Shown here one piece after another: positions 16,826 through 63,037 of a DNA stretch of 64,000 nt. Under the pieces are notes generated by a model. The model saw only the letters and a program-made list of their open reading frames with translations. It was not told the origin of the DNA and did not search any database. The position numbers and the translations under genes were made by a program. The DNA is from Enterobacteria phage phiC600P9: the sequence record MZ681930.1, one strand, 5' to 3'. The first letter of the stretch is position 1. The number at the start of each line of letters is the position of its first letter.

Positions 16826-18000
16826 TGAGTATGTTGCAACGCCCCGGATATCCAAATCTCAGCGTTAAATTATTTGATAGCTACGACGCTTGGAGTAATA
16901 ATAGATTTGTTGAATTAGCTGCTACTATTACCACATTAACTATGCGGGATTCTCTTTATGGCCGAAATGAAGGAATGCTGCAGTTTTATGATTCTAAAAA
17001 CATCCATACAAAAATGGATGGAAATGAAATAATTCAGATTTCTGTAGCTAATGCAAATGATATTAATAATGTTAAAACACGAATTTATGGATGTAAGCAT
17101 TTTTCCGTGTCAGTAGATTCAAAAGGTGATAACATCATTGCTATTGAATTGGGAACTATTCATTCTATAGAAAATCTTAAATTCGGTAGACCATTTTTCC
17201 CTGATGCAGGTGAATCTATAAAAGAAATGCTTGGTGTCATTTATCAGGATCGCACATTATTAACTCCAGCAATAAATGCTATAAATGCTTATGTTCCTGA
17301 TATTCCATGGACTAGCACATTTGAAAACTATTTGTCATATGTAAGAGAAGTTGGTCTAGCTGTAGGAAGCGACAAATTTGTATTTGTATGGCAAGACATC
17401 ATGGGAGTTAACATGATGGACTATGATATGATGATAAATCAAGAACCATATCCAATGATTGTCGGTGAGCCATCTTTAATAGGTCAATTCATCCAAGAAT
17501 TAAAATATCCATTAGCATATGATTTCGTTTGGTTGACTAAATCGAATCCTCACAAACGTGACCCAATGAAAAATGCTACTATCTATGCGCATTCATTTTT
17601 AGATTCTTCATTGCCAATGATTACTACAGGAAAGGGCGAAAACTCTATTGTAGTGTCAAGGTCAGGTGCTTATTCTGAAATGACTTATAGGAATGGATAT
17701 GAAGAAGCTATTCGTCTTCAAACTATGGCACAATATGACGGTTATGCTAAATGTTCTACTGTTGGTAATTTTAACTTGACTCCTGGTGTTAAAATTATTT
17801 TTAATGATAGTAAAAACCAATTTAAAACAGAATTTTACGTTGATGAAGTTATCCATGAATTATCCAATAATAATTCAGTAACTCATCTATATATGTTCAC
17901 TAATGCAACGAAACTGGAAACAATAGACCCAGTTAAGGTTAAAAATGAATTTAAATCTGATACTACCACTGAAGAAAGTAGTTCTTCCAATAAGCAATAA
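16825..18000 (+). CDS. 27: Baseplate hub protein gp27
   Basis: 391-aa ORF, same length as T4 gp27. Confidence 0.9.
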
Positions 18001-27045: not shown

Positions 27046-28505
27046 AGACCAGTTACCTCATGAAAATCGCCAAATACATCTTCGAACGTATTAGCTTTAG
27101 TTTTATCTTCACGTAAACGAATCGCAATCGGAAGAAATAATTTAACGTAATCAGTGCGGCCATCAGATTTTAACCAACCATTGCATTCGCACTCTAGAAT
27201 TTTTCCAATATAATAATTTTGGTTTTCCATAATGCGAGTACGGTCAAGTTCATGCGATTTTACACCGGCTTTATCTTTTAAGCCTGAACCAGCATTTACC
27301 TTAATTTTTCCACACTCTGACTCAAGAATAAATCCACCTGCTTTAGTAGGGTCTTTACGGTGAGGATAAATTCCTACAATTTTTAAATCAACATCAATTA
27401 CTTCTTTAAATTTATAGAGATTTTTTGAACGAGCATTTTCCCATAATCCATCGATATTTTTGAGAATAATACCTTCAAGACCTTGGTCAATATACTTTTT
27501 ATAAATTACCTTAGCTTCATCTAGGTTATTTACTACCTGGTTTTCAATTAAAATTACTTTATCATATCCTGATGTCATTTGTTCTAGTTTAGAAAAACGT
27601 ACATCATATTTTAAACGAAACGCCGGAAGACCGTATATTTCTACCAACGGGACATAATCCCAGACCTGAAACTTCATACATTGAGCTTCTTTTTCAGAAA
27701 TGGTTCCTTTTAAGGATTTATTGGCGATTCCATTAGAAGTAGTACGAGATTCCGCTACTTCGGCGAATTCTTTAGCTTTACTAATTTCAGGATAAGCATC
27801 AAAAAGAAAATCTAGTCCTTCTGGTTCCTTTTTAACTTGCTCATGGTATACCAATTCGCCATCAATTAACACACCTTCTGGATGAATCTGGCGGGCTTCA
27901 GCAGTCATTTTGATTAATTCTTCCTTAAGAAGATCTAATCCTAGATATTCATTACCAGCTCGTGATAAAAGACGAACATCATCTAATTCATCACCTCGGA
28001 CTTCAGCAAAACACCGAGCTCCATCTGCTTTTAACTGTGCAAAAGCTGGAAACTTGATATTCTTACTAATGCCTTTTTCATCATAAGAACTTGCCAGCAT
28101 TTGAGGTTGTTCAGGAATTAAACCTGGCCAAACTTTGTTTGCAATAGATACTGAAGCACCGCATTCAAGGTCTCGCATCATAACTCGACGCAAAACTTCA
28201 ACATCATCCTTTTTACCATCGGTGATATATCCAGTCAATTCCTCAATTGCAGCATTTCCAGTCAATTTCCGAGTAGCTAACGTGAATTCAATGAAGTCAA
28301 GCATATCGGTAATGGTCAGCATTCCAAAACTCTGGGTAGCAATACCAGGTTTAGGCCATTTCTTGATATAATACTGCAACCCACGAGAATAAGTCAGACG
28401 ATATACTCGTTTAAGCAATTCATTATCTTTATTCTTTTCAAGAATTGCTTGCTTCTGCTTAGTTGAACCAATAGATGCTATTTCATTCAGAATTTTAAGA
28501 ATCAT
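27042..28505 (-). CDS. 30: ATP-dependent DNA ligase gp30
   Basis: 487-aa ORF with the adenylation motif KADGAR, matching the T4 DNA ligase length. Confidence 0.95.
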   Translation of the reverse strand: MILKILNEIASIGSTKQKQAILEKNKDNELLKRVYRLTYSRGLQYYIKKWPKPGIATQSFGMLTITDMLDFIEFTLATRKLTGNAAIEELTGYITDGKKDDVEVLRRVMMRDLECGASVSIANKVWPGLIPEQPQMLASSYDEKGISKNIKFPAFAQLKADGARCFAEVRGDELDDVRLLSRAGNEYLGLDLLKEELIKMTAEARQIHPEGVLIDGELVYHEQVKKEPEGLDFLFDAYPEISKAKEFAEVAESRTTSNGIANKSLKGTISEKEAQCMKFQVWDYVPLVEIYGLPAFRLKYDVRFSKLEQMTSGYDKVILIENQVVNNLDEAKVIYKKYIDQGLEGIILKNIDGLWENARSKNLYKFKEVIDVDLKIVGIYPHRKDPTKAGGFILESECGKIKVNAGSGLKDKAGVKSHELDRTRIMENQNYYIGKILECECNGWLKSDGRTDYVKLFLPIAIRLREDKTKANTFEDVFGDFHEVTGL

Positions 28506-31576: not shown

Positions 31577-31686
31577 TTTATTCTCCTTTGTTTGTGTAAG
31601 ATAATACTATCACAAAGGAACCATACTGTAAACAACTTTGTGCAATCTTTGGAAAATAAAAAAGGACTCCCGAAGGAGTCCTTAAC

Positions 31687-31863
31687 TTATGCTTTCTGCT
31701 TACCAAAACGAGAAGCATCATCTCGAAGAACCGCACGTGCTCGGCGCATGATCTTCTCAACAGTTTGATTGATACGAGAGTTCGACCCACGCTTGTAACC
31801 AGCGCGTTTAGAATCACCAACTTTCTTTTCAACTGCTTTCTTTGCTTTAGCTTGTTTTGCCAT
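31687..31863 (-). CDS. Small basic hypothetical protein (30.9-like)
   Basis: Lys/Arg-rich ORF MAKQAKAKKAVEKKVGDSKRAGYKRGS...; I prefer the internal ATG at 31863 over the ORF-track start at 31905. Confidence 0.5.
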   Translation of the reverse strand: MAKQAKAKKAVEKKVGDSKRAGYKRGSNSRINQTVEKIMRRARAVLRDDASRFGKQKA

Positions 31864-32261
31864 TATAAATTCTCTTTTAAATGAAAATGCAGGACTTATT
31901 GGCATTGCCTGCGCAAGCCCTCACGGGGAACATAGGTTTTTGAATATTTAACGACCAGGATAACCATAAACCCGTCATCATACCTTATAGCTCTTATCTG
32001 TTGCACACCGTTAGCTTAAAGGTTCCGGGTTCGATTTCTCGAGGATAAGATATATACTGATGGATATATAGGCCTTGAGGCGTACTCCCGATTGGCCATC
32101 ACCTCGGGGTAGCATGCACTTGCCGCTATAAGAATAACATTCAAGAGGTACACCGTAAAACTGCCGGGGTCTTAAAACTATAATGATTCGCAAATCATTA
32201 ATCAGACAGTTCGACGGCTCCTCGATTTTAGCTCACACTAAGGCAGTGAATCTCCAATAAA

Positions 32262-32510: not shown

Positions 32511-32657
32511 TTAAAAATTCTCGTTAGAGATTAAAACTCGGTAGTCACGTTCTTCTGAATTTCATCTTCTTTCGACAGATCTCTCAGTTGTAGACTACCA
32601 CGTAGAATTGTTCGGTTAACTTATTATTCCGACACCCAATTCATATTATTATTTATA

Positions 32658-38131: not shown

Positions 38132-39719
<1,588 letters not shown>

Positions 39720-46408: not shown

Positions 46409-46636
46409 TTACTGCTCAATAAATCCTGTGTAAAATTCTACATCTTCAGCATCCATACCGTCACAATATTCATTAACCATAAATTGTTTAAGACGATTTA
46501 AAGGACCTTCAATAACAACTGAAACATTGCAATTGGGGTCATTTAGTGCGCTTGTAATACGGAGTTCAGGATAACGATTACGAATAATTTCTTCAATATA
46601 TTCAAAATCAACAACATCAATATCAATTTTAGCCAT
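46409..46636 (-). CDS. Small hypothetical protein, independently initiated ORF that is also in frame with gene 32
   Basis: ATG at 46636 preceded by aaagaggaaaataac gives 75 aa ([16 protein letters not shown]...). In this sequence it is in frame with, and not separated by a stop from, gene 32 upstream. Confidence 0.5.
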
Positions 46637-47587
46637 GTTATTTTCCTCTTTAATCATCATCAGCAGTATTGCCGATAGTTGTATAGTACCACAGTATGCT
46701 TTGAGGTCCGTGTCATCAGCACTAGATGAACTGCCAGAGCTTGAGCTCATAAAATCATCTTCAGTTTTTGTTTTGAAGTCATCAACATTGAATGCATCCA
46801 AATCATCAGCAACTTTATCGGCTTTCTTAGCAGCAGTTGCTGCGGCACCACCCATAGCAGCAGTTCCCATAACTTGACTGAACTTAGTGCTCAGTTCTTC
46901 AAACGATTTGAATTTATCTTTAGAAGTCATTTCAGAAAGGTCAACCATCTGTTCAAACAGTTCTTTCTGGAAAGATTCATCATCAATGTTTGGAATCGCA
47001 GATTGATTCAGGAATTTAGATTCGTCGTAGTTACTAAAACCAGAAACTTGTTTAACTTTCAGTACAAAGTTAGCACCTTCCCACGGACAAGTTACATCAA
47101 CCGGAGTTTCACCCATTTCAACATCAACTGCAATCATTGCATTGATTTTATCCCAGATTTTCTTACCAAAACGGTATTTAAATACTTTACCTTCATTTTC
47201 TGGAGCAGCTGGGTCTTTTACTACAAGAATGTTAGCCCAATAAGAAGTTTTGCGTTTAACAAGACTGTACTCTTTATTGTCAGTGTTGTACAAATCATTT
47301 TTACTGATATACTGACATACTGGACAAGAATCGTAATCACCGTGGGTAGATGAACAGTTTTCAATATACCATTTACCATTTTTCTTGAAACCGTGATTTA
47401 CAAGAATTGCGAATGGTGCTTGTTCATCATTTTTAGACGGAAGAAAACGAATTACTGCTTGACCGTTACCCGCATTGTCGAGTTTCAGTTTCCACTCGCC
47501 TTTATCTTCAGAAGAAAAACCACCTTTATTTCCAGCCAGTTTAGCCATTTGTGCAGCGAGTTCAGCAGTAGATTTACGTTTAAACAT
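46409..47587 (-). CDS. 32: Single-stranded DNA-binding protein gp32, as encoded here without its own stop codon (392-aa read-through ORF)
   Basis: The first 294 aa match T4 gp32 as recalled (zinc site, OB fold, serine-rich tail [15 protein letters not shown]), but the expected ending DDLLNDL-stop is replaced by ...[22 protein letters not shown] and the frame continues into the next ORF. Confidence 0.8.
46674..46703. repeat. 30-nt motif gatagttgtatagtaccacagtatgctttg, copy A, at the gene 32 3' junction
   Basis: 29 of 30 nt identical to 62836-62865; partial matches at 39281-39293 and 32586-32609. Confidence 0.8.
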
Positions 47588-47650
47588 TTTTATTTCCTTT
47601 TTAATTTAATTAACAGTTGGTGCTATGACGATGTATGACCTCATAGCTGG
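47588..47650 (-). promoter_or_regulatory. Gene 32 translational operator (autoregulatory 5' UTR)
   Basis: Minus strand upstream of the gene 32 ATG reads ...gttaattaaattaaaaaggaaataaaaATG, the A/U-rich unstructured tract recalled from T4; the structured part upstream was not folded here. Confidence 0.6.
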
Positions 47651-47670
47651 TCAGTGAGATAATTATAATC

Positions 47671-47678
47671 TATTTATA
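47671..47678 (-). promoter_or_regulatory. Late promoter TATAAATA upstream of gene 32
   Basis: Minus-strand TATAAATA between the gene 59 stop and the gene 32 leader. Confidence 0.5.
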
Positions 47679-47686
47679 ATAAGCAA

Positions 47687-49952: not shown

Positions 49953-52900
49953 ATGGCCGAGATTAAAAGAAAGTTCAGAGCAGAAGACGGTCTGGACGCA
50001 GGTGGCGATAAAATAATCAACGTAGCTTTAGCTGATCGTACCGTAGGAACTGACGGTGTTAACGTTGATTACTTAATTCAAGAAAATACAGTTCAACAAT
50101 ATGATCCAACTCGTGGATATTTAAAAGATTTTGTAATCATTTATGATAACCGCTTTTGGGCTGCTATAAATGATATTCCAAAACCAGCAGGAGCTTTTAA
50201 TAGCGGACGCTGGAGAGCATTACGTACCGATGCAAACTGGATTACGGTTTCATCTGGTTCATATCAATTAAAATCTGGTGAAGCAATTTCGGTTAACACT
50301 GCAGCTGGAAATGACATTACGTTTACTTTACCGTCTTCTCCAATTGATGGTGATACTATCATTCTCCAAGATATTGGAGGAAAACCTGGAGTTAACCAAG
50401 TTTTAATTGTAGCTCCAGTGCAAAGTATTGTAAACTTTAGAGGTGAACAAGTACGTTCAGTACTAATGACTCATCCAAAGTCACAGCTAGTTTTAATTTT
50501 TAGTAATCGTCTGTGGCAAATGTATGTTGCTGATTATAGTAGAGAAGCTATAGTTGTAACACCAGCGAATACTTATCAAGCGCAATCCAACGATTTTATC
50601 GTACGTAGATTTACTTCTGCTGCACCAATTAATGTTAAACTTCCAAGATTTGCTAATCATGGCGATATTATTAATTTCGTCGATTTAGATAAACTAAATC
50701 CGCTTTATCATACAATTGTTACTACATACGATGAAACGACTTCAATACAAGAAGTTGGAACTCATTCCATTGAAGGCCGTACAACGATTGACGGTTTCTT
50801 GATGTTTGATGATAATGAGAAATTGTGGAGATTGTTTGACGGGGATAATAAAGCGCGTTTACGCATTATAACGACTAATTCTAATATTCGTCCAAATGAA
50901 GAAGTTATGGTATTTGGTGCGAATAACGGAACAGCTCAGACAATTGAACTTCAGCTTCCGACTGATATTTCTGTTGGTGATACTGTTAAAATTTCCATGA
51001 ATTACATAAGAAAAGGACAAACAGTTAAAATCAAAGCTGCCGGTGAAGATAAAATTGCTTCTTCAGTTCAATTGCTGCAATTCCCAAAACGTTCAGAGTA
51101 TCCGCCTGAAACTAAATGGGTGACTGTTCAAGAATTAGTTTTTAACGGTGAAACTAATTATGTTCCAGTTTTACAACTTGCTTATATAGAAGATTCTGAT
51201 GGAAAATACTGGGTAGTACAGCAAAACGTTCCAACTGTAGAAAGAGTAGACTCTTTAAATGATTCTACTAGAGCAAGATTAGGCGTAATTGCTTTAGCTA
51301 CACAAGCTCAAGCTAATGTCGATTTAGAAAATTCTCCACAAAAAGAATTAGCAATTACTCCAGAAACATTAGCTAACCGTACTGCTACTGAAACTCGCAG
51401 AGGTATTGCAAGAATAGCAACTACTGCTCAAGTGAATCAGAACACCACATTCTCTTTTGCTGATGATCTTATCATTACTCCTAAAAAGCTGAATGAAAGA
51501 ACTGCTACAGAAACTCGTAGAGGTGTTGCTGAAATTGCTACGCAGCAGGAAACTAATGCAGGTACTGATGATACTACAATCATCACTCCTAAAAAGCTTC
51601 AAGCTCGTCAAGGTTCTGAATCATTATCTGGTATTGTAACCTTTGTATCTACTGCAGGAGCTACTCCAGCTTCTAGTCGTGAATTAAATGGTACAAACGT
51701 TTATAATAAAAACACTAATAATTTAGTTGTTTCGCCTAAAGCTTTGGATCAGTATAAAGCTACTCCAACGCAACAAGGTGCAGTAATTTTAGCAGTTGAA
51801 AGTGAAGTAATTGCTGGACAAAGCCAAGAAGGATGGGCAAATGCGGTTGTAACGCCAGAAACGTTACATAAAAAGACATCAACTGATGCAAGAATTGGTT
51901 TAATTGAAATTGCTACGCAAAGTGAAGTTAATACAGGAACTGATTATACTCGTGCAGTCACTCCTAAAACTTTAAATGACCGTAGAGCAACTGAAAGTTT
52001 AAGTGGTATAGCTGAAATTGCTACACAAGTTGAATTCGACGCAGGCGTCGACGATACTCGTATCTCTACACCATTAAAAATTAAAACTAGATTTAATAGT
52101 ACTGATCGTACTTCTGTTGTTGCTCTATCTGGATTAGTTGAATCAGGAACTCTCTGGGACCATTATACACTTAATATTCTTGAAGCAAATGAGACACAGC
52201 GTGGTACACTTCGTGTAGCTACACAGGTTGAAGCTGCTGCAGGAAAATTAGATAATGTTTTAATAACTCCTAAAAAGCTTTTAGGTACTAAATCTACTGA
52301 AGCACAAGAAGGTGTTATTAAAGTTGCAACTCAGTCTGAAACTGTAACTGGAACGTCAGCAAATACTGCTGTATCTCCAAAAAATTTAAAATGGATTGCG
52401 CAGAGTGAACCTACTTGGGCAGCTACTACTGCGATAAGAGGTTTTGTTAAAACTTCATCTGGTTCAATTACATTCGTTGGTAATGATACGGTAGGTTCAA
52501 CACAGCCATTAGAATCATATGAGAAAAATAGCTATGCGGTATCACCATATGAATTAAACCGTGTATTAGCAAATTATTTGCCGTTAAAAGCAAAAGCTGC
52601 TGATACAAATTTATTGGATGGTCTAGATTCATCTCAGTTCATTCGTAGGGATATTGCACAGACGGTTAATGGTTCACTAACCTTAACCCAACAAATGAAT
52701 CTGAGTGCCCCTCTTGTATCATCTAGTACTGCTACGTTTGGTGGATCAGTTTCGGCAAATAGTACATTAACTATTTCTAATACTGGAACGGCAACTCGTC
52801 TGATTTTTGAGAAAGGACCTCAGACTGGAACTAACCCAGCGCAGACGATGGCTATCAAAGTTTGGGGAAATCAGTTTGGTGGCGGATCAGATACAGCACG

Positions 52901-55008: not shown

Positions 55009-55674
55009 ATGGCTGATTTAAAAGTAGGTTCAACAACCGGAGGCTCTGTCATTTGGCATCAAGGAAATTTTCCATTGAATCCAGCCGGTGACGATGTACT
55101 CTATAAATCATTTAAAATATATTCAGAATATAATAAACCACAAGCTGCTGATAACGATTTCGTTTCTAAAGCTAATGGTGGTACTTATGCATCAAAGGTA
55201 ACATTTAACGGTGGCGTACAAGTTCCGTATGCTATAAACAACACAAACCAATGTGGTATTTATCCAGGTAACGGTGATAATGCTACTTTTGCTGTAGCAA
55301 ATATTGATATTGTTTCGTGGAATGGTATTGGTTTTAAATCATCACAAGGTTCAGCGGAACGAAATGTTGTAATTAATGCACGTAATGGTGATATTAGTAC
55401 AAAAGGCGTTGTGACAGCAGTAGGTCAAATAAGAAGTAATGCAGTTTCTCCTGTATCAGCAAATGACCTTACTAGAAAGGACTATGTTGATGGAGCAATA
55501 AATACTGTTACAGCAAATGCGAACTCTAGAGTGTTGCGTTCTGGCGACACTATGACAGGTAATTTAACCGCGCCAAACTTTTTCTCGCAGAATCCCGCAT
55601 CTCAACCTTCACATGTTCCACGATTTGACCAAATCGTAATTAAGGATTCTGTTCAAGATTTCGGCTATTATTAA
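55009..55674 (+). CDS. 36: Long tail fibre distal subunit connector gp36
   Basis: 221-aa ORF, same length as T4 gp36. Confidence 0.9.
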
Positions 55675-62166: not shown

Positions 62167-62802
62167 TCACAGTTCAGATGCTACAGTAATTACAGCTTCA
62201 ATGTTTTCTGCTGAGCGTTTAATGTCAAGATACACATTACCATTTTTAGCGATTTTACATGACATTCCGATATCAGTAAATTTCTGAATATGATGTTCCA
62301 TCATTTTGTATCCAAAAATTCGCATATTTCCATTGTTGTTAATTTCAAAATTACGAATTCCGTGAGTGCGTTTTTCTAAAATAGCGAGATAGTTACTACG
62401 ATAAGTTTCAACCTTTTTAAGAACAAATCCATTTTCATCTAAAAGTTTTAACATGAAGTCTTTATCTTCTTCCATATCAGAAGTAATCTCGCGAGCTTTA
62501 CGAGTTGCTCGTTTTTTCAGCAGTTCCGGAGCGTTTTCCTGTGCGTATAAAGTTGCTGCATTTGAAATAATATCCTGAGCTTCACCAGTAATGATTAATC
62601 CATCACCAGATTTCTCCACCAGGCCTTTTTTAATCAATACCCCAATATTACTATTAACTACTGCATTACCTAAATCTGGATGCACCTCACGAACTTCTGC
62701 AGCTGTAATGAAATCTTTCTTAGCAATGGTAATTAAAATCGCAGCAGTTTTTTCATTCAGAACATCGTTAGAAGCTTTGATGATGTAAGTTACTTTAGAC
62801 AT
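62167..62802 (-). CDS. motA: MotA middle-transcription activator
   Basis: 211-aa ORF, same length as T4 MotA. Confidence 0.88.
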   Translation of the reverse strand: MSKVTYIIKASNDVLNEKTAAILITIAKKDFITAAEVREVHPDLGNAVVNSNIGVLIKKGLVEKSGDGLIITGEAQDIISNAATLYAQENAPELLKKRATRKAREITSDMEEDKDFMLKLLDENGFVLKKVETYRSNYLAILEKRTHGIRNFEINNNGNMRIFGYKMMEHHIQKFTDIGMSCKIAKNGNVYLDIKRSAENIEAVITVASEL

Positions 62803-62835
62803 TTTCTAATCTCCGTAATTCTGTATCAGTAGTTG

Positions 62836-62865
62836 ATAGTTGTATAGTACCACAGAATGCTTTGG
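62836..62865. repeat. 30-nt motif gatagttgtatagtaccacagaatgctttg, copy B, upstream of motA and adjacent to a hairpin
   Basis: 29 of 30 nt identical to 46674-46703; immediately followed by hairpin ggagagc-cgag-gctctcc at 62865-62882. Confidence 0.8.
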
Positions 62866-62887
62866 AGAGCCGAGGCTCTCCCTAAAA

Positions 62888-63037
62888 TTACTGCATGACT
62901 GTGATAACTGTCATGATAACGCGTTGAATGCCGAACGCAAGAAGACCTCCTGCTACGGCTGGAACAACACCTAAACCCGCTAGTAAAATGCCGCCAGATA
63001 CTAACGCCGCGCTTGTAATACCAATGAATGGACTCAT
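62888..63037 (-). CDS. Small hydrophobic membrane protein, 49 aa
   Basis: My own translation: MSPFIGITSAALVSGGILLAGLGVVPAVAGGLLAFGIQRVIMTVITVMQ; the ATG overlaps the gene 52 stop (ATGA). Below the ORF-track size cut-off. Confidence 0.45.
   Translation of the reverse strand: MSPFIGITSAALVSGGILLAGLGVVPAVAGGLLAFGIQRVIMTVITVMQ

Follow-up and report, generated by a model that had tools for sequence, protein, structure and literature searches.

Truncated early promoters of motA and frd.3 in a phiC600P9 genome record, very probably left by trimming of vector-like sequence

The motA and gene 32–frd.3 loci

The window analysed here is the whole 64,000-nt stretch from Enterobacteria phage phiC600P9 (sequence record MZ681930.1), read as one strand. 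At its motA locus a promoter remnant and a stem-loop lie between motA and motA.1, all on the minus strand:

62167–62802, minus strand: motA coding sequence (open reading frame list; annotated as MotA in phiC600P9, W143 and T4; Shine–Dalgarno region with GGAG)
62835–62864, minus strand: remnant of the motA early promoter, with spacer (CCAAAGCATTCTG), TGn (TGG), -10 (TACTAT) and start region (ACAACTATC), from alignments with T4 and W143
62864–62882, minus strand: stem-loop belonging to the intrinsic terminator behind motA.1, GGAGAGCC TCGG CTCTCC as read on the minus strand
62888–63037, minus strand: motA.1, gene of a small membrane/periplasmic protein (open reading frame list and annotation); the stem-loop upstream of motA is its terminator

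The second locus is the junction between gene 32 and frd.3:

46674–46703, minus strand: remnant of the frd.3 early promoter, with spacer, TGn, -10 and start region as in the motA copy, from an alignment with KIT06, T4_ev240 and T4
46409–47587, minus strand: fusion open reading frame of 392 aa, made of gp32 residues 1–294, a 22-aa read-through (promoter remnant and frd.3 leader) and Frd.3

The two remnants are copies of one 30-mer, GATAGTTGTATAGTACCACAG[T/A]ATGCTTTG, which reads CAAAGCAT[A/T]CTGTGGTACTATACAACTATC on the minus strand. The frd.3 copy has an A for the T of the motA copy at one spacer position, so that 29 of 30 positions are identical, and 100 dinucleotide shuffles gave 0 matches of this kind. 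The repeat noticed in an earlier, sequence-only reading is thus real, with its 62.8 kb copy one base lower than proposed (62835–62864, not 62836–62865). From the end of the 30-mer it is 32 nt to the start of motA at 62.8 kb and 37 nt to the start of frd.3 at 46.7 kb. The hairpin that the same reading placed beside the repeat is also found: at 62864–62882 a 7-bp stem with a tetraloop is predicted by folding, with -14.6 kcal/mol and z = -2.96. No T-run follows this hairpin in the present record; the equivalent position in T4 is GGGAGAGCCGAGGCTCTCCCTTTTTT. The claim that all copies are intergenic does not hold here, since the 46.7 kb copy lies inside the 392-aa reading frame. We note that segG (T4 147909–148541, between genes 32 and 59) is absent, and positions 47588–47686 of the window form a short spacer between genes 32 and 59.

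Identity of the repeat

The 30-mer makes up the downstream two-thirds of a sigma-70 early promoter, of which there are two nearly identical ones, and comprises the 17-bp spacer, the TGn, the -10 element TACTAT and the start region. Alignments with T4, T4_ev240, KIT06 and W143 give the intact form at both loci as TTTTTTCACAAAACGGTTTACAA-CCAAAGCAT[A/T]CTGTGG-TACTAT-ACAACTATC, that is, an A/T-rich tract, a -35 element GTTTACA, a spacer of 17 bp with TGn at its end, the -10 element and the start region. In the window, both copies carry TGG TACTAT (a TAnnnT -10 with an upstream TGn) on the minus strand, and the suggestion that the minus-strand core resembles an extended -10 element is borne out. 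Each copy lies upstream of an early gene (motA or frd.3) and on its strand.

Neither locus of the window has a -35 element GTTTAC(A/T) at the expected distance of about 17 bp before the -10, nor the A/T-rich UP-like tract upstream of that element, which is TTTTTTATTTTAAAAATTTTTTCACAAAAC in T4. The homologous loci of T4, KIT06 and W143 have the -35 element at exactly 17-bp spacing, and in the intact genomes T4 and W143 the full promoter TTTTTTCACAAAACGGTTTACAA stands directly upstream of the equivalent of the motA remnant; in this record the remnant lacks the UP-like tract and the -35 GTTTACA. The earlier statement that there is no canonical -35 is therefore right for this sequence but not for the promoter, which in intact relatives has GTTTACA and a 17-bp spacer. 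A MotA box, (a/t)(a/t)TGCTT(t/c)A centred at -30, was not found at these copies either. The minus strand reads CCAAAGCAT at that position, and ATGCTTTG occurs only on the strand opposite to the transcribed one.

The promoter belongs to a family. In T4 there are eight sites with the -10 core GGTACTATACAACTATC (at most one mismatch), each after a -35-like GTTTAC or ATTTAC, and five sites have a nearly identical UP/-35 region. A genome-wide loss of early-promoter -35 elements was considered and rejected, as nine other minus-strand promoters of the type GTTTAC-N-TAnnnT are intact in the window. The UP/-35/TGn/-10 organisation of the intact relatives fits the published architecture of T4 early promoters (PMC2988021).

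Two weaker copies of the core had been proposed, at 39.3 kb and 32.6 kb, and neither belongs to the repeat. At 39281–39293 only TGTGGTACTATA, the extended -10, is shared, and it is part of a different site:

39270–39312, minus strand: distinct promoter-like site before rnlA; MotA-box-like ATGCTTCC, then 12 nt, then TGG TACTAT

The published list of mapped T4 middle promoters has none between denA and rnlA (Hinton 2010, PMC2988021). At 32587–32602 the match is 13 of 16 positions, and chance alone would give 0.53 matches of this quality across the window.

Two other features were seen in the neighbourhood of this second site. Between the 30.9-like region and rIII, the window carries 153 nt (31982–32134) that T4 lacks, inserted at the equivalent of T4 ~130659. 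This stretch is richer in G+C than its surroundings and gave no match in Rfam and no convincing reading frame. An Rfam scan of 31.5–33 kb gave only one match, below threshold: at 31648–31731 on the minus strand the Rhizobiales sRNA Atu_C8 scores 32.5 bits, where the gathering score is 50. A small basic reading frame overlaps this match, which is probably due to chance.

Missing DNA at the two loci

In a comparison of the window with T4, sizeable intergenic deletions were seen at these two loci and nowhere else:

62864–62865, no strand: presumed excision scar at motA; 42 nt (CCCTTTTTTATTTTAAAAATTTTTTCACAAAACGGTTTACAA, T4 163666–163707) absent
46703–46704, no strand: presumed excision scar at gene 32; 106 nt of KIT06, the closest intact relative, absent

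The exact cut at motA is ambiguous within CTCT(CC)AAAGC, and phage TB004 sets its left edge directly after CTCT. At gene 32 the missing 106 nt comprise the last seven codons and the stop (DDLLNDL*), the terminator hairpin GGGGACCCTAGAGGTCCCC and the T-run behind it, the A/T tract and the -35 element. The -35 elements are missing from the window at both loci because they fall within the absent spans. The shortened sequence thus loses the stop codon and terminator of gene 32 and the -35 of the motA promoter.

The 392-aa gp32–Frd.3 reading frame is best explained as an artefact of the removed gene 32 stop. The corresponding 1179-nt coding sequence is annotated as 'single stranded DNA-binding protein' in phiC600P9, GEP001, vB_Eco-B1.1 and CrRp10, compared with 906 nt for gene 32 of T4. 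The coding sequence is 1209 nt in IME537 and 936 nt in Sfk20, and SP21535 has no gene 32 annotation.

A second record of phiC600P9, MT630408.1, aligns with the window over a 25-kb stretch without gaps, and the bit score implies a single mismatch. The alignment places this mismatch at the gene 32 junction base, 46703 (T vs C), which would fit the same cut shifted by one base, although this is not certain. The coordinates of the window are offset from those of MT630408.1 by 96001, not 96000. Together, the mismatch and the offset suggest two versions of one genome that were processed separately.

Match of the missing DNA to a vector fragment

Because the spacer of the T4 frd.3 promoter contains a HindIII site, we suspected a cloning-cassette fragment carrying the gene 32 terminator. 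A search of T4 against 72,556 plasmids found a 117-nt segment, TGGATGACC...AAGCTT, that is 100% identical to T4 and present in two copies in each of three records. The fragment, TGGATGACC...GGGGACCCTAGAGGTCCCC...GGTTTACAAGCATAAAGCTT, corresponds to T4 146857–146973, and its start, TGGATGACC, is the base right after the common left edge of the gene 32 gaps. In pIPO2T (tagged with mini-Tn5 luxAB-tet) an inverted pair of the fragment surrounds tet(C), and in pCoo an inverted pair surrounds aph(3')-IIIa, in both cases next to a BamHI-SmaI-EcoRI polylinker. We take this inverted-pair layout to be the omega-interposon architecture of Prentki and Krisch. The gene 32 terminator ('T32') is a documented part of the mini-Tn5/pBAM vectors (PMC4211546). 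A literature search on T4 terminators of the omega interposon, or on false positives of vector screens in phages, found nothing directly on point.

A contamination screen was simulated with blastn run at VecScreen settings, the 117-mer serving as the 'vector'. In T4 it flags 146857–146973 (117 nt, gene 32) and 163666–163707 (42 nt, motA). In KIT06 it flags exactly the 106 nt that are missing from phiC600P9, GEP001, B1.1 and CrRp10, and in the window itself no residual match is found. The missing spans thus coincide base for base with the alignments to the vector fragment.

Outside the region covered by the window, T4 has further matches at 55366–55417 (score 40), 70690–70720 (score 25) and 27072–27101 (score 24). 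The equivalents of the first two sites are damaged in phiC600P9:

~50870–50925 of MT630408.1, downstream of nrdC.11: presumed scar; T-run, UP and -35 of the same promoter family missing
~66001–66060 of MT630408.1, upstream of the tRNA cluster: presumed scar; T-run, UP and -35 of the same promoter family missing

In the cassette downstream of nrdC.11, GGGCTCCC is joined directly to TTTATGGTACTATAC, and the stretch from the T-run through AAGCTT is missing. At the equivalent of the T4 70.7 kb site, exactly TTTTAAAAATTTTTTCACAAAACTGTTTACA is missing. The third site scores 21 in the own sequence of phiC600P9 and has kept its -35. All four predicted sites of phiC600P9 are thus excised and the site with score 21 is spared, under the thresholds assumed here. 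A promoter piece retained in IME537 scores 22 and was kept as well. The score thresholds of VecScreen, including that for internal matches, are assumed values, and 22 presumably lies below the internal-match threshold.

Junctions in related genomes

Junction-spanning searches over 50,697 phage records found the gene 32 junction in five distinct phages, namely phiC600P9, GEP001, vB_Eco-B1.1, TB004 and CrRp10. The motA junction is present in all five of them and also in SP21535, ZN18 and Sfk20, with a variant form in ZCEC15 and IME537. Each junction occurs in only about 1–2% of roughly 500 genomes. Both loci are readable in nine carriers (phiC600P9, represented by the window, GEP001, vB_Eco-B1.1, TB004, CrRp10, SP21535, ZN18, Sfk20 and IME537), and in nine of nine both spans are absent. 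In these nine the left edge at gene 32 is identical, after ...GACACGGACC, and the next base would be the first base of the 117-nt fragment.

The right edges vary in a telling way. In three different spacer backgrounds they follow GTTTACA(A) directly; in ZN18 and IME537, where the tracts are not those of T4, they come earlier, inside the T-run or the A/T tract. In each carrier the right edge is where the match to T4 downstream of gene 32 ends, across three spacer variants and two UP variants. The exact fit at the ZN18 junction and at the nrdC.11 junction of phiC600P9 requires an assumed length of the T-run in the unseen original. In TB004 one extra base (A) stands to the right of both junctions, GGACC joined to ACCAAAGC and GGCTCT joined to ACCAAAGC; the GGCTCT junction also sets the left edge at motA to the base with which the simulated match begins. 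This off-by-one is a signature of cutting by coordinates.

The recurrence of a right boundary just 3' of GTTTACA in several sequence contexts, together with the many Seg and Mob endonucleases of T-even phages, could point to the motif as the target of a site-specific nuclease, a homing endonuclease or an RNA-processing enzyme, with the deletions as scars of repair or as escape alleles. Alignment to the vector fragment predicts these boundaries in full, and the off-by-one of TB004 is not a biological signature. Neither locus adjoins an endonuclease gene, and with segG absent from the window a scar of SegG or of another homing endonuclease is rejected. We consider a nuclease or processing target extremely improbable, and the idea of such a site in the earlier reading finds no support.

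Short-read collapse or mis-joining at a repeated promoter cassette of ~50–70 nt would also remove DNA. Repeats are classic break points of assembly graphs, and the DNA missing at motA is part of a cassette that is repeated elsewhere in the genome. At gene 32, however, 64 nt of unique sequence (gene end and hairpin) are missing too, and equally repeated promoters elsewhere are intact, on which grounds De Bruijn repeat collapse is rejected. The repeat is also shorter than usual k-mers and reads, the left edge is the end of the vector fragment, and the boundaries follow likeness to T4 and not the limits of repeats within the genome. An assembly artefact is highly unlikely.

The spans could also be genuine natural deletion alleles, either from one ancestor with recombination or recurrent, in which terminators and -35/UP elements were lost. 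Expression of motA and frd.3 would then depend on read-through or on a weak extended -10 promoter, and a gp32–Frd.3 fusion would be made. The records come from at least five countries, the extended -10 TGnTACTAT could keep some -35-independent activity, and T4-type cassettes are known recombination substrates (PMC2839356) whose copy number varies naturally, as in the tandem promoter of W143. Natural deletion nevertheless gives no reason for every gene 32 deletion to begin at the first base of an artificial fragment, or for each to end where that phage diverges from T4. Four separate loci of phiC600P9 are hit while sub-threshold cassettes are spared, the same extra base stands at both loci of TB004, and the C-terminus and stop codon of gp32 are lost. 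The junctions have no consistent microhomology either. Deletion mediated by microhomology or by the hairpin is rejected, as there is no consistent direct repeat and zero to three 'extra' bases stand at the junctions; gene conversion between the two loci is rejected as well, the left flanks being without homology. Natural alleles are very unlikely as an explanation. Only a very small probability is likewise given to a minority Tequatrovirus lineage with real paired deletions, i.e. with multi-locus loss of the T-run and the UP/-35 half, a gp32–Frd.3 fusion and a motA gene lacking the canonical early promoter. If true, such pairing would mean that deletion is directed by sequence or that the cassette is strongly selected against.

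Origin of the truncated promoters

We conclude that the two loci hold known promoters whose truncation is very probably due to post-assembly trimming of vector-like spans, and not to phage biology. Trimming is favoured because of the boundary pattern, the co-occurrence at several loci, the behaviour around the score threshold and the off-by-one of TB004. In the real phage each promoter would very probably lie in a cassette of ~72 nt, made of a stem-loop, T-run, UP-like tract, -35, spacer and -10, and host RNA polymerase would start there immediately after infection. The spans at the end of gene 32 and upstream of motA would be flagged as vector by NCBI-type screens through their match to the 117-nt T4 fragment, and the flagged spans would then have been cut out of the phiC600P9 sequence after assembly. 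The vector part behind the presumed flagging is itself derived from T4. The trimming agent was, we infer, a contamination screen followed by cutting by the submitter or a pipeline, and the fragment is presumably present in UniVec. Post-assembly excision would account for the absent -35 at both promoters, the hairpin lacking a T-run and the gene 32–frd.3 fusion. The puzzle of an extended -10 with neither a -35 nor a MotA box would thus arise because 42 and 106 nt were removed from the deposited sequence.

The early promoters of motA and frd.3 and the type of cassette are already known, and biologically there is nothing new here. The finding concerns the records. Genuine phage DNA has apparently been excised from at least ten Tequatrovirus records, the nine carriers and ZCEC15. 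The consequences are false 'deletions', promoters seemingly devoid of a -35, terminators that have no T-run and SSB proteins with wrong annotations, including gp32 fusion proteins of 392–402 aa and the unannotated gene 32 of SP21535. Such records would mislead comparisons of promoter evolution, gp32 C-termini and indel hot spots in T4-like phages.

Comparison with known systems

As regards the T32 cloning fragment, the window does not contain the fragment itself and has holes where the matching sequence very probably was removed. With the T4 early promoters of motA and frd.3, the window shares the spacer, TGn, -10, start region, position and strand. The motA remnant differs from T4 163635–163665 by one spacer base. 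The frd.3 promoter of T4 has a different spacer (AGCATAAAGCTTTATGG), whereas the KIT06/phiC600P9 lineage has the motA-type spacer at both promoters, which is why the 30-nt repeat was seen. Unlike T4, the window record lacks the A/T tract and the -35 GTTTACA, with 42 and 106 nt missing.

Another closely related class is the promoter-early stem-loop (PeSL; Arbiol et al. 2010, PMC2839356; Comeau et al. 2014, PMC4122927), with which the intact genomes share a stem-loop terminator, an AT-rich tract and TTTACA-N17-TACTAT. The PeSL consensus of the PST/T4 group is TTTACW-N17-TAYWAT (PMC4122927); TTTACA-N17-TACTAT of the intact relatives matches it, and the window is unscorable without a -35. The suggestion of PeSL elements in the sequence-only reading was sound, since the motif is the downstream part of a unit of stem-loop, T-run, A/T tract and TTTACA-N17-TACTAT in T4 and relatives. 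In T4 and KIT06 the promoter follows a hairpin and T-run at both loci, in T4 directly, and the cassette of ~72 nt carries both promoters in T4 and about 500 relatives. The window has kept this coupling at 62864–62882, with the stem-loop directly upstream of the motA promoter remnant, and has no hairpin at the gene 32 locus.

As with PeSLs, the cassette is repeated around the genome and tied to local indels, namely an extra reading frame in ZN18 and ZCEC15 and the tandem promoter of W143. In W143 (~620–760) two complete UP/-35/-10 units of the motA early promoter stand 63 nt apart, which shows natural variation in the copy number of the cassette. In ZN18 (17587–17814) and ZCEC15 (17594–17821) an extra 75-aa reading frame (MKFKIENEIV...) lies between motA.1 and motA, with a truncated cassette before it and, after it, a terminator of its own and an early promoter of the GTTTAC type that is intact. 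This arrangement looks like a genuine PeSL-type insertion of a module between cassettes. The two loci of the window differ from PeSLs in that they flank conserved genes of known function (32 and motA) and not ORFans in hyperplastic regions, and their truncation is unrelated to PeSL recombination.
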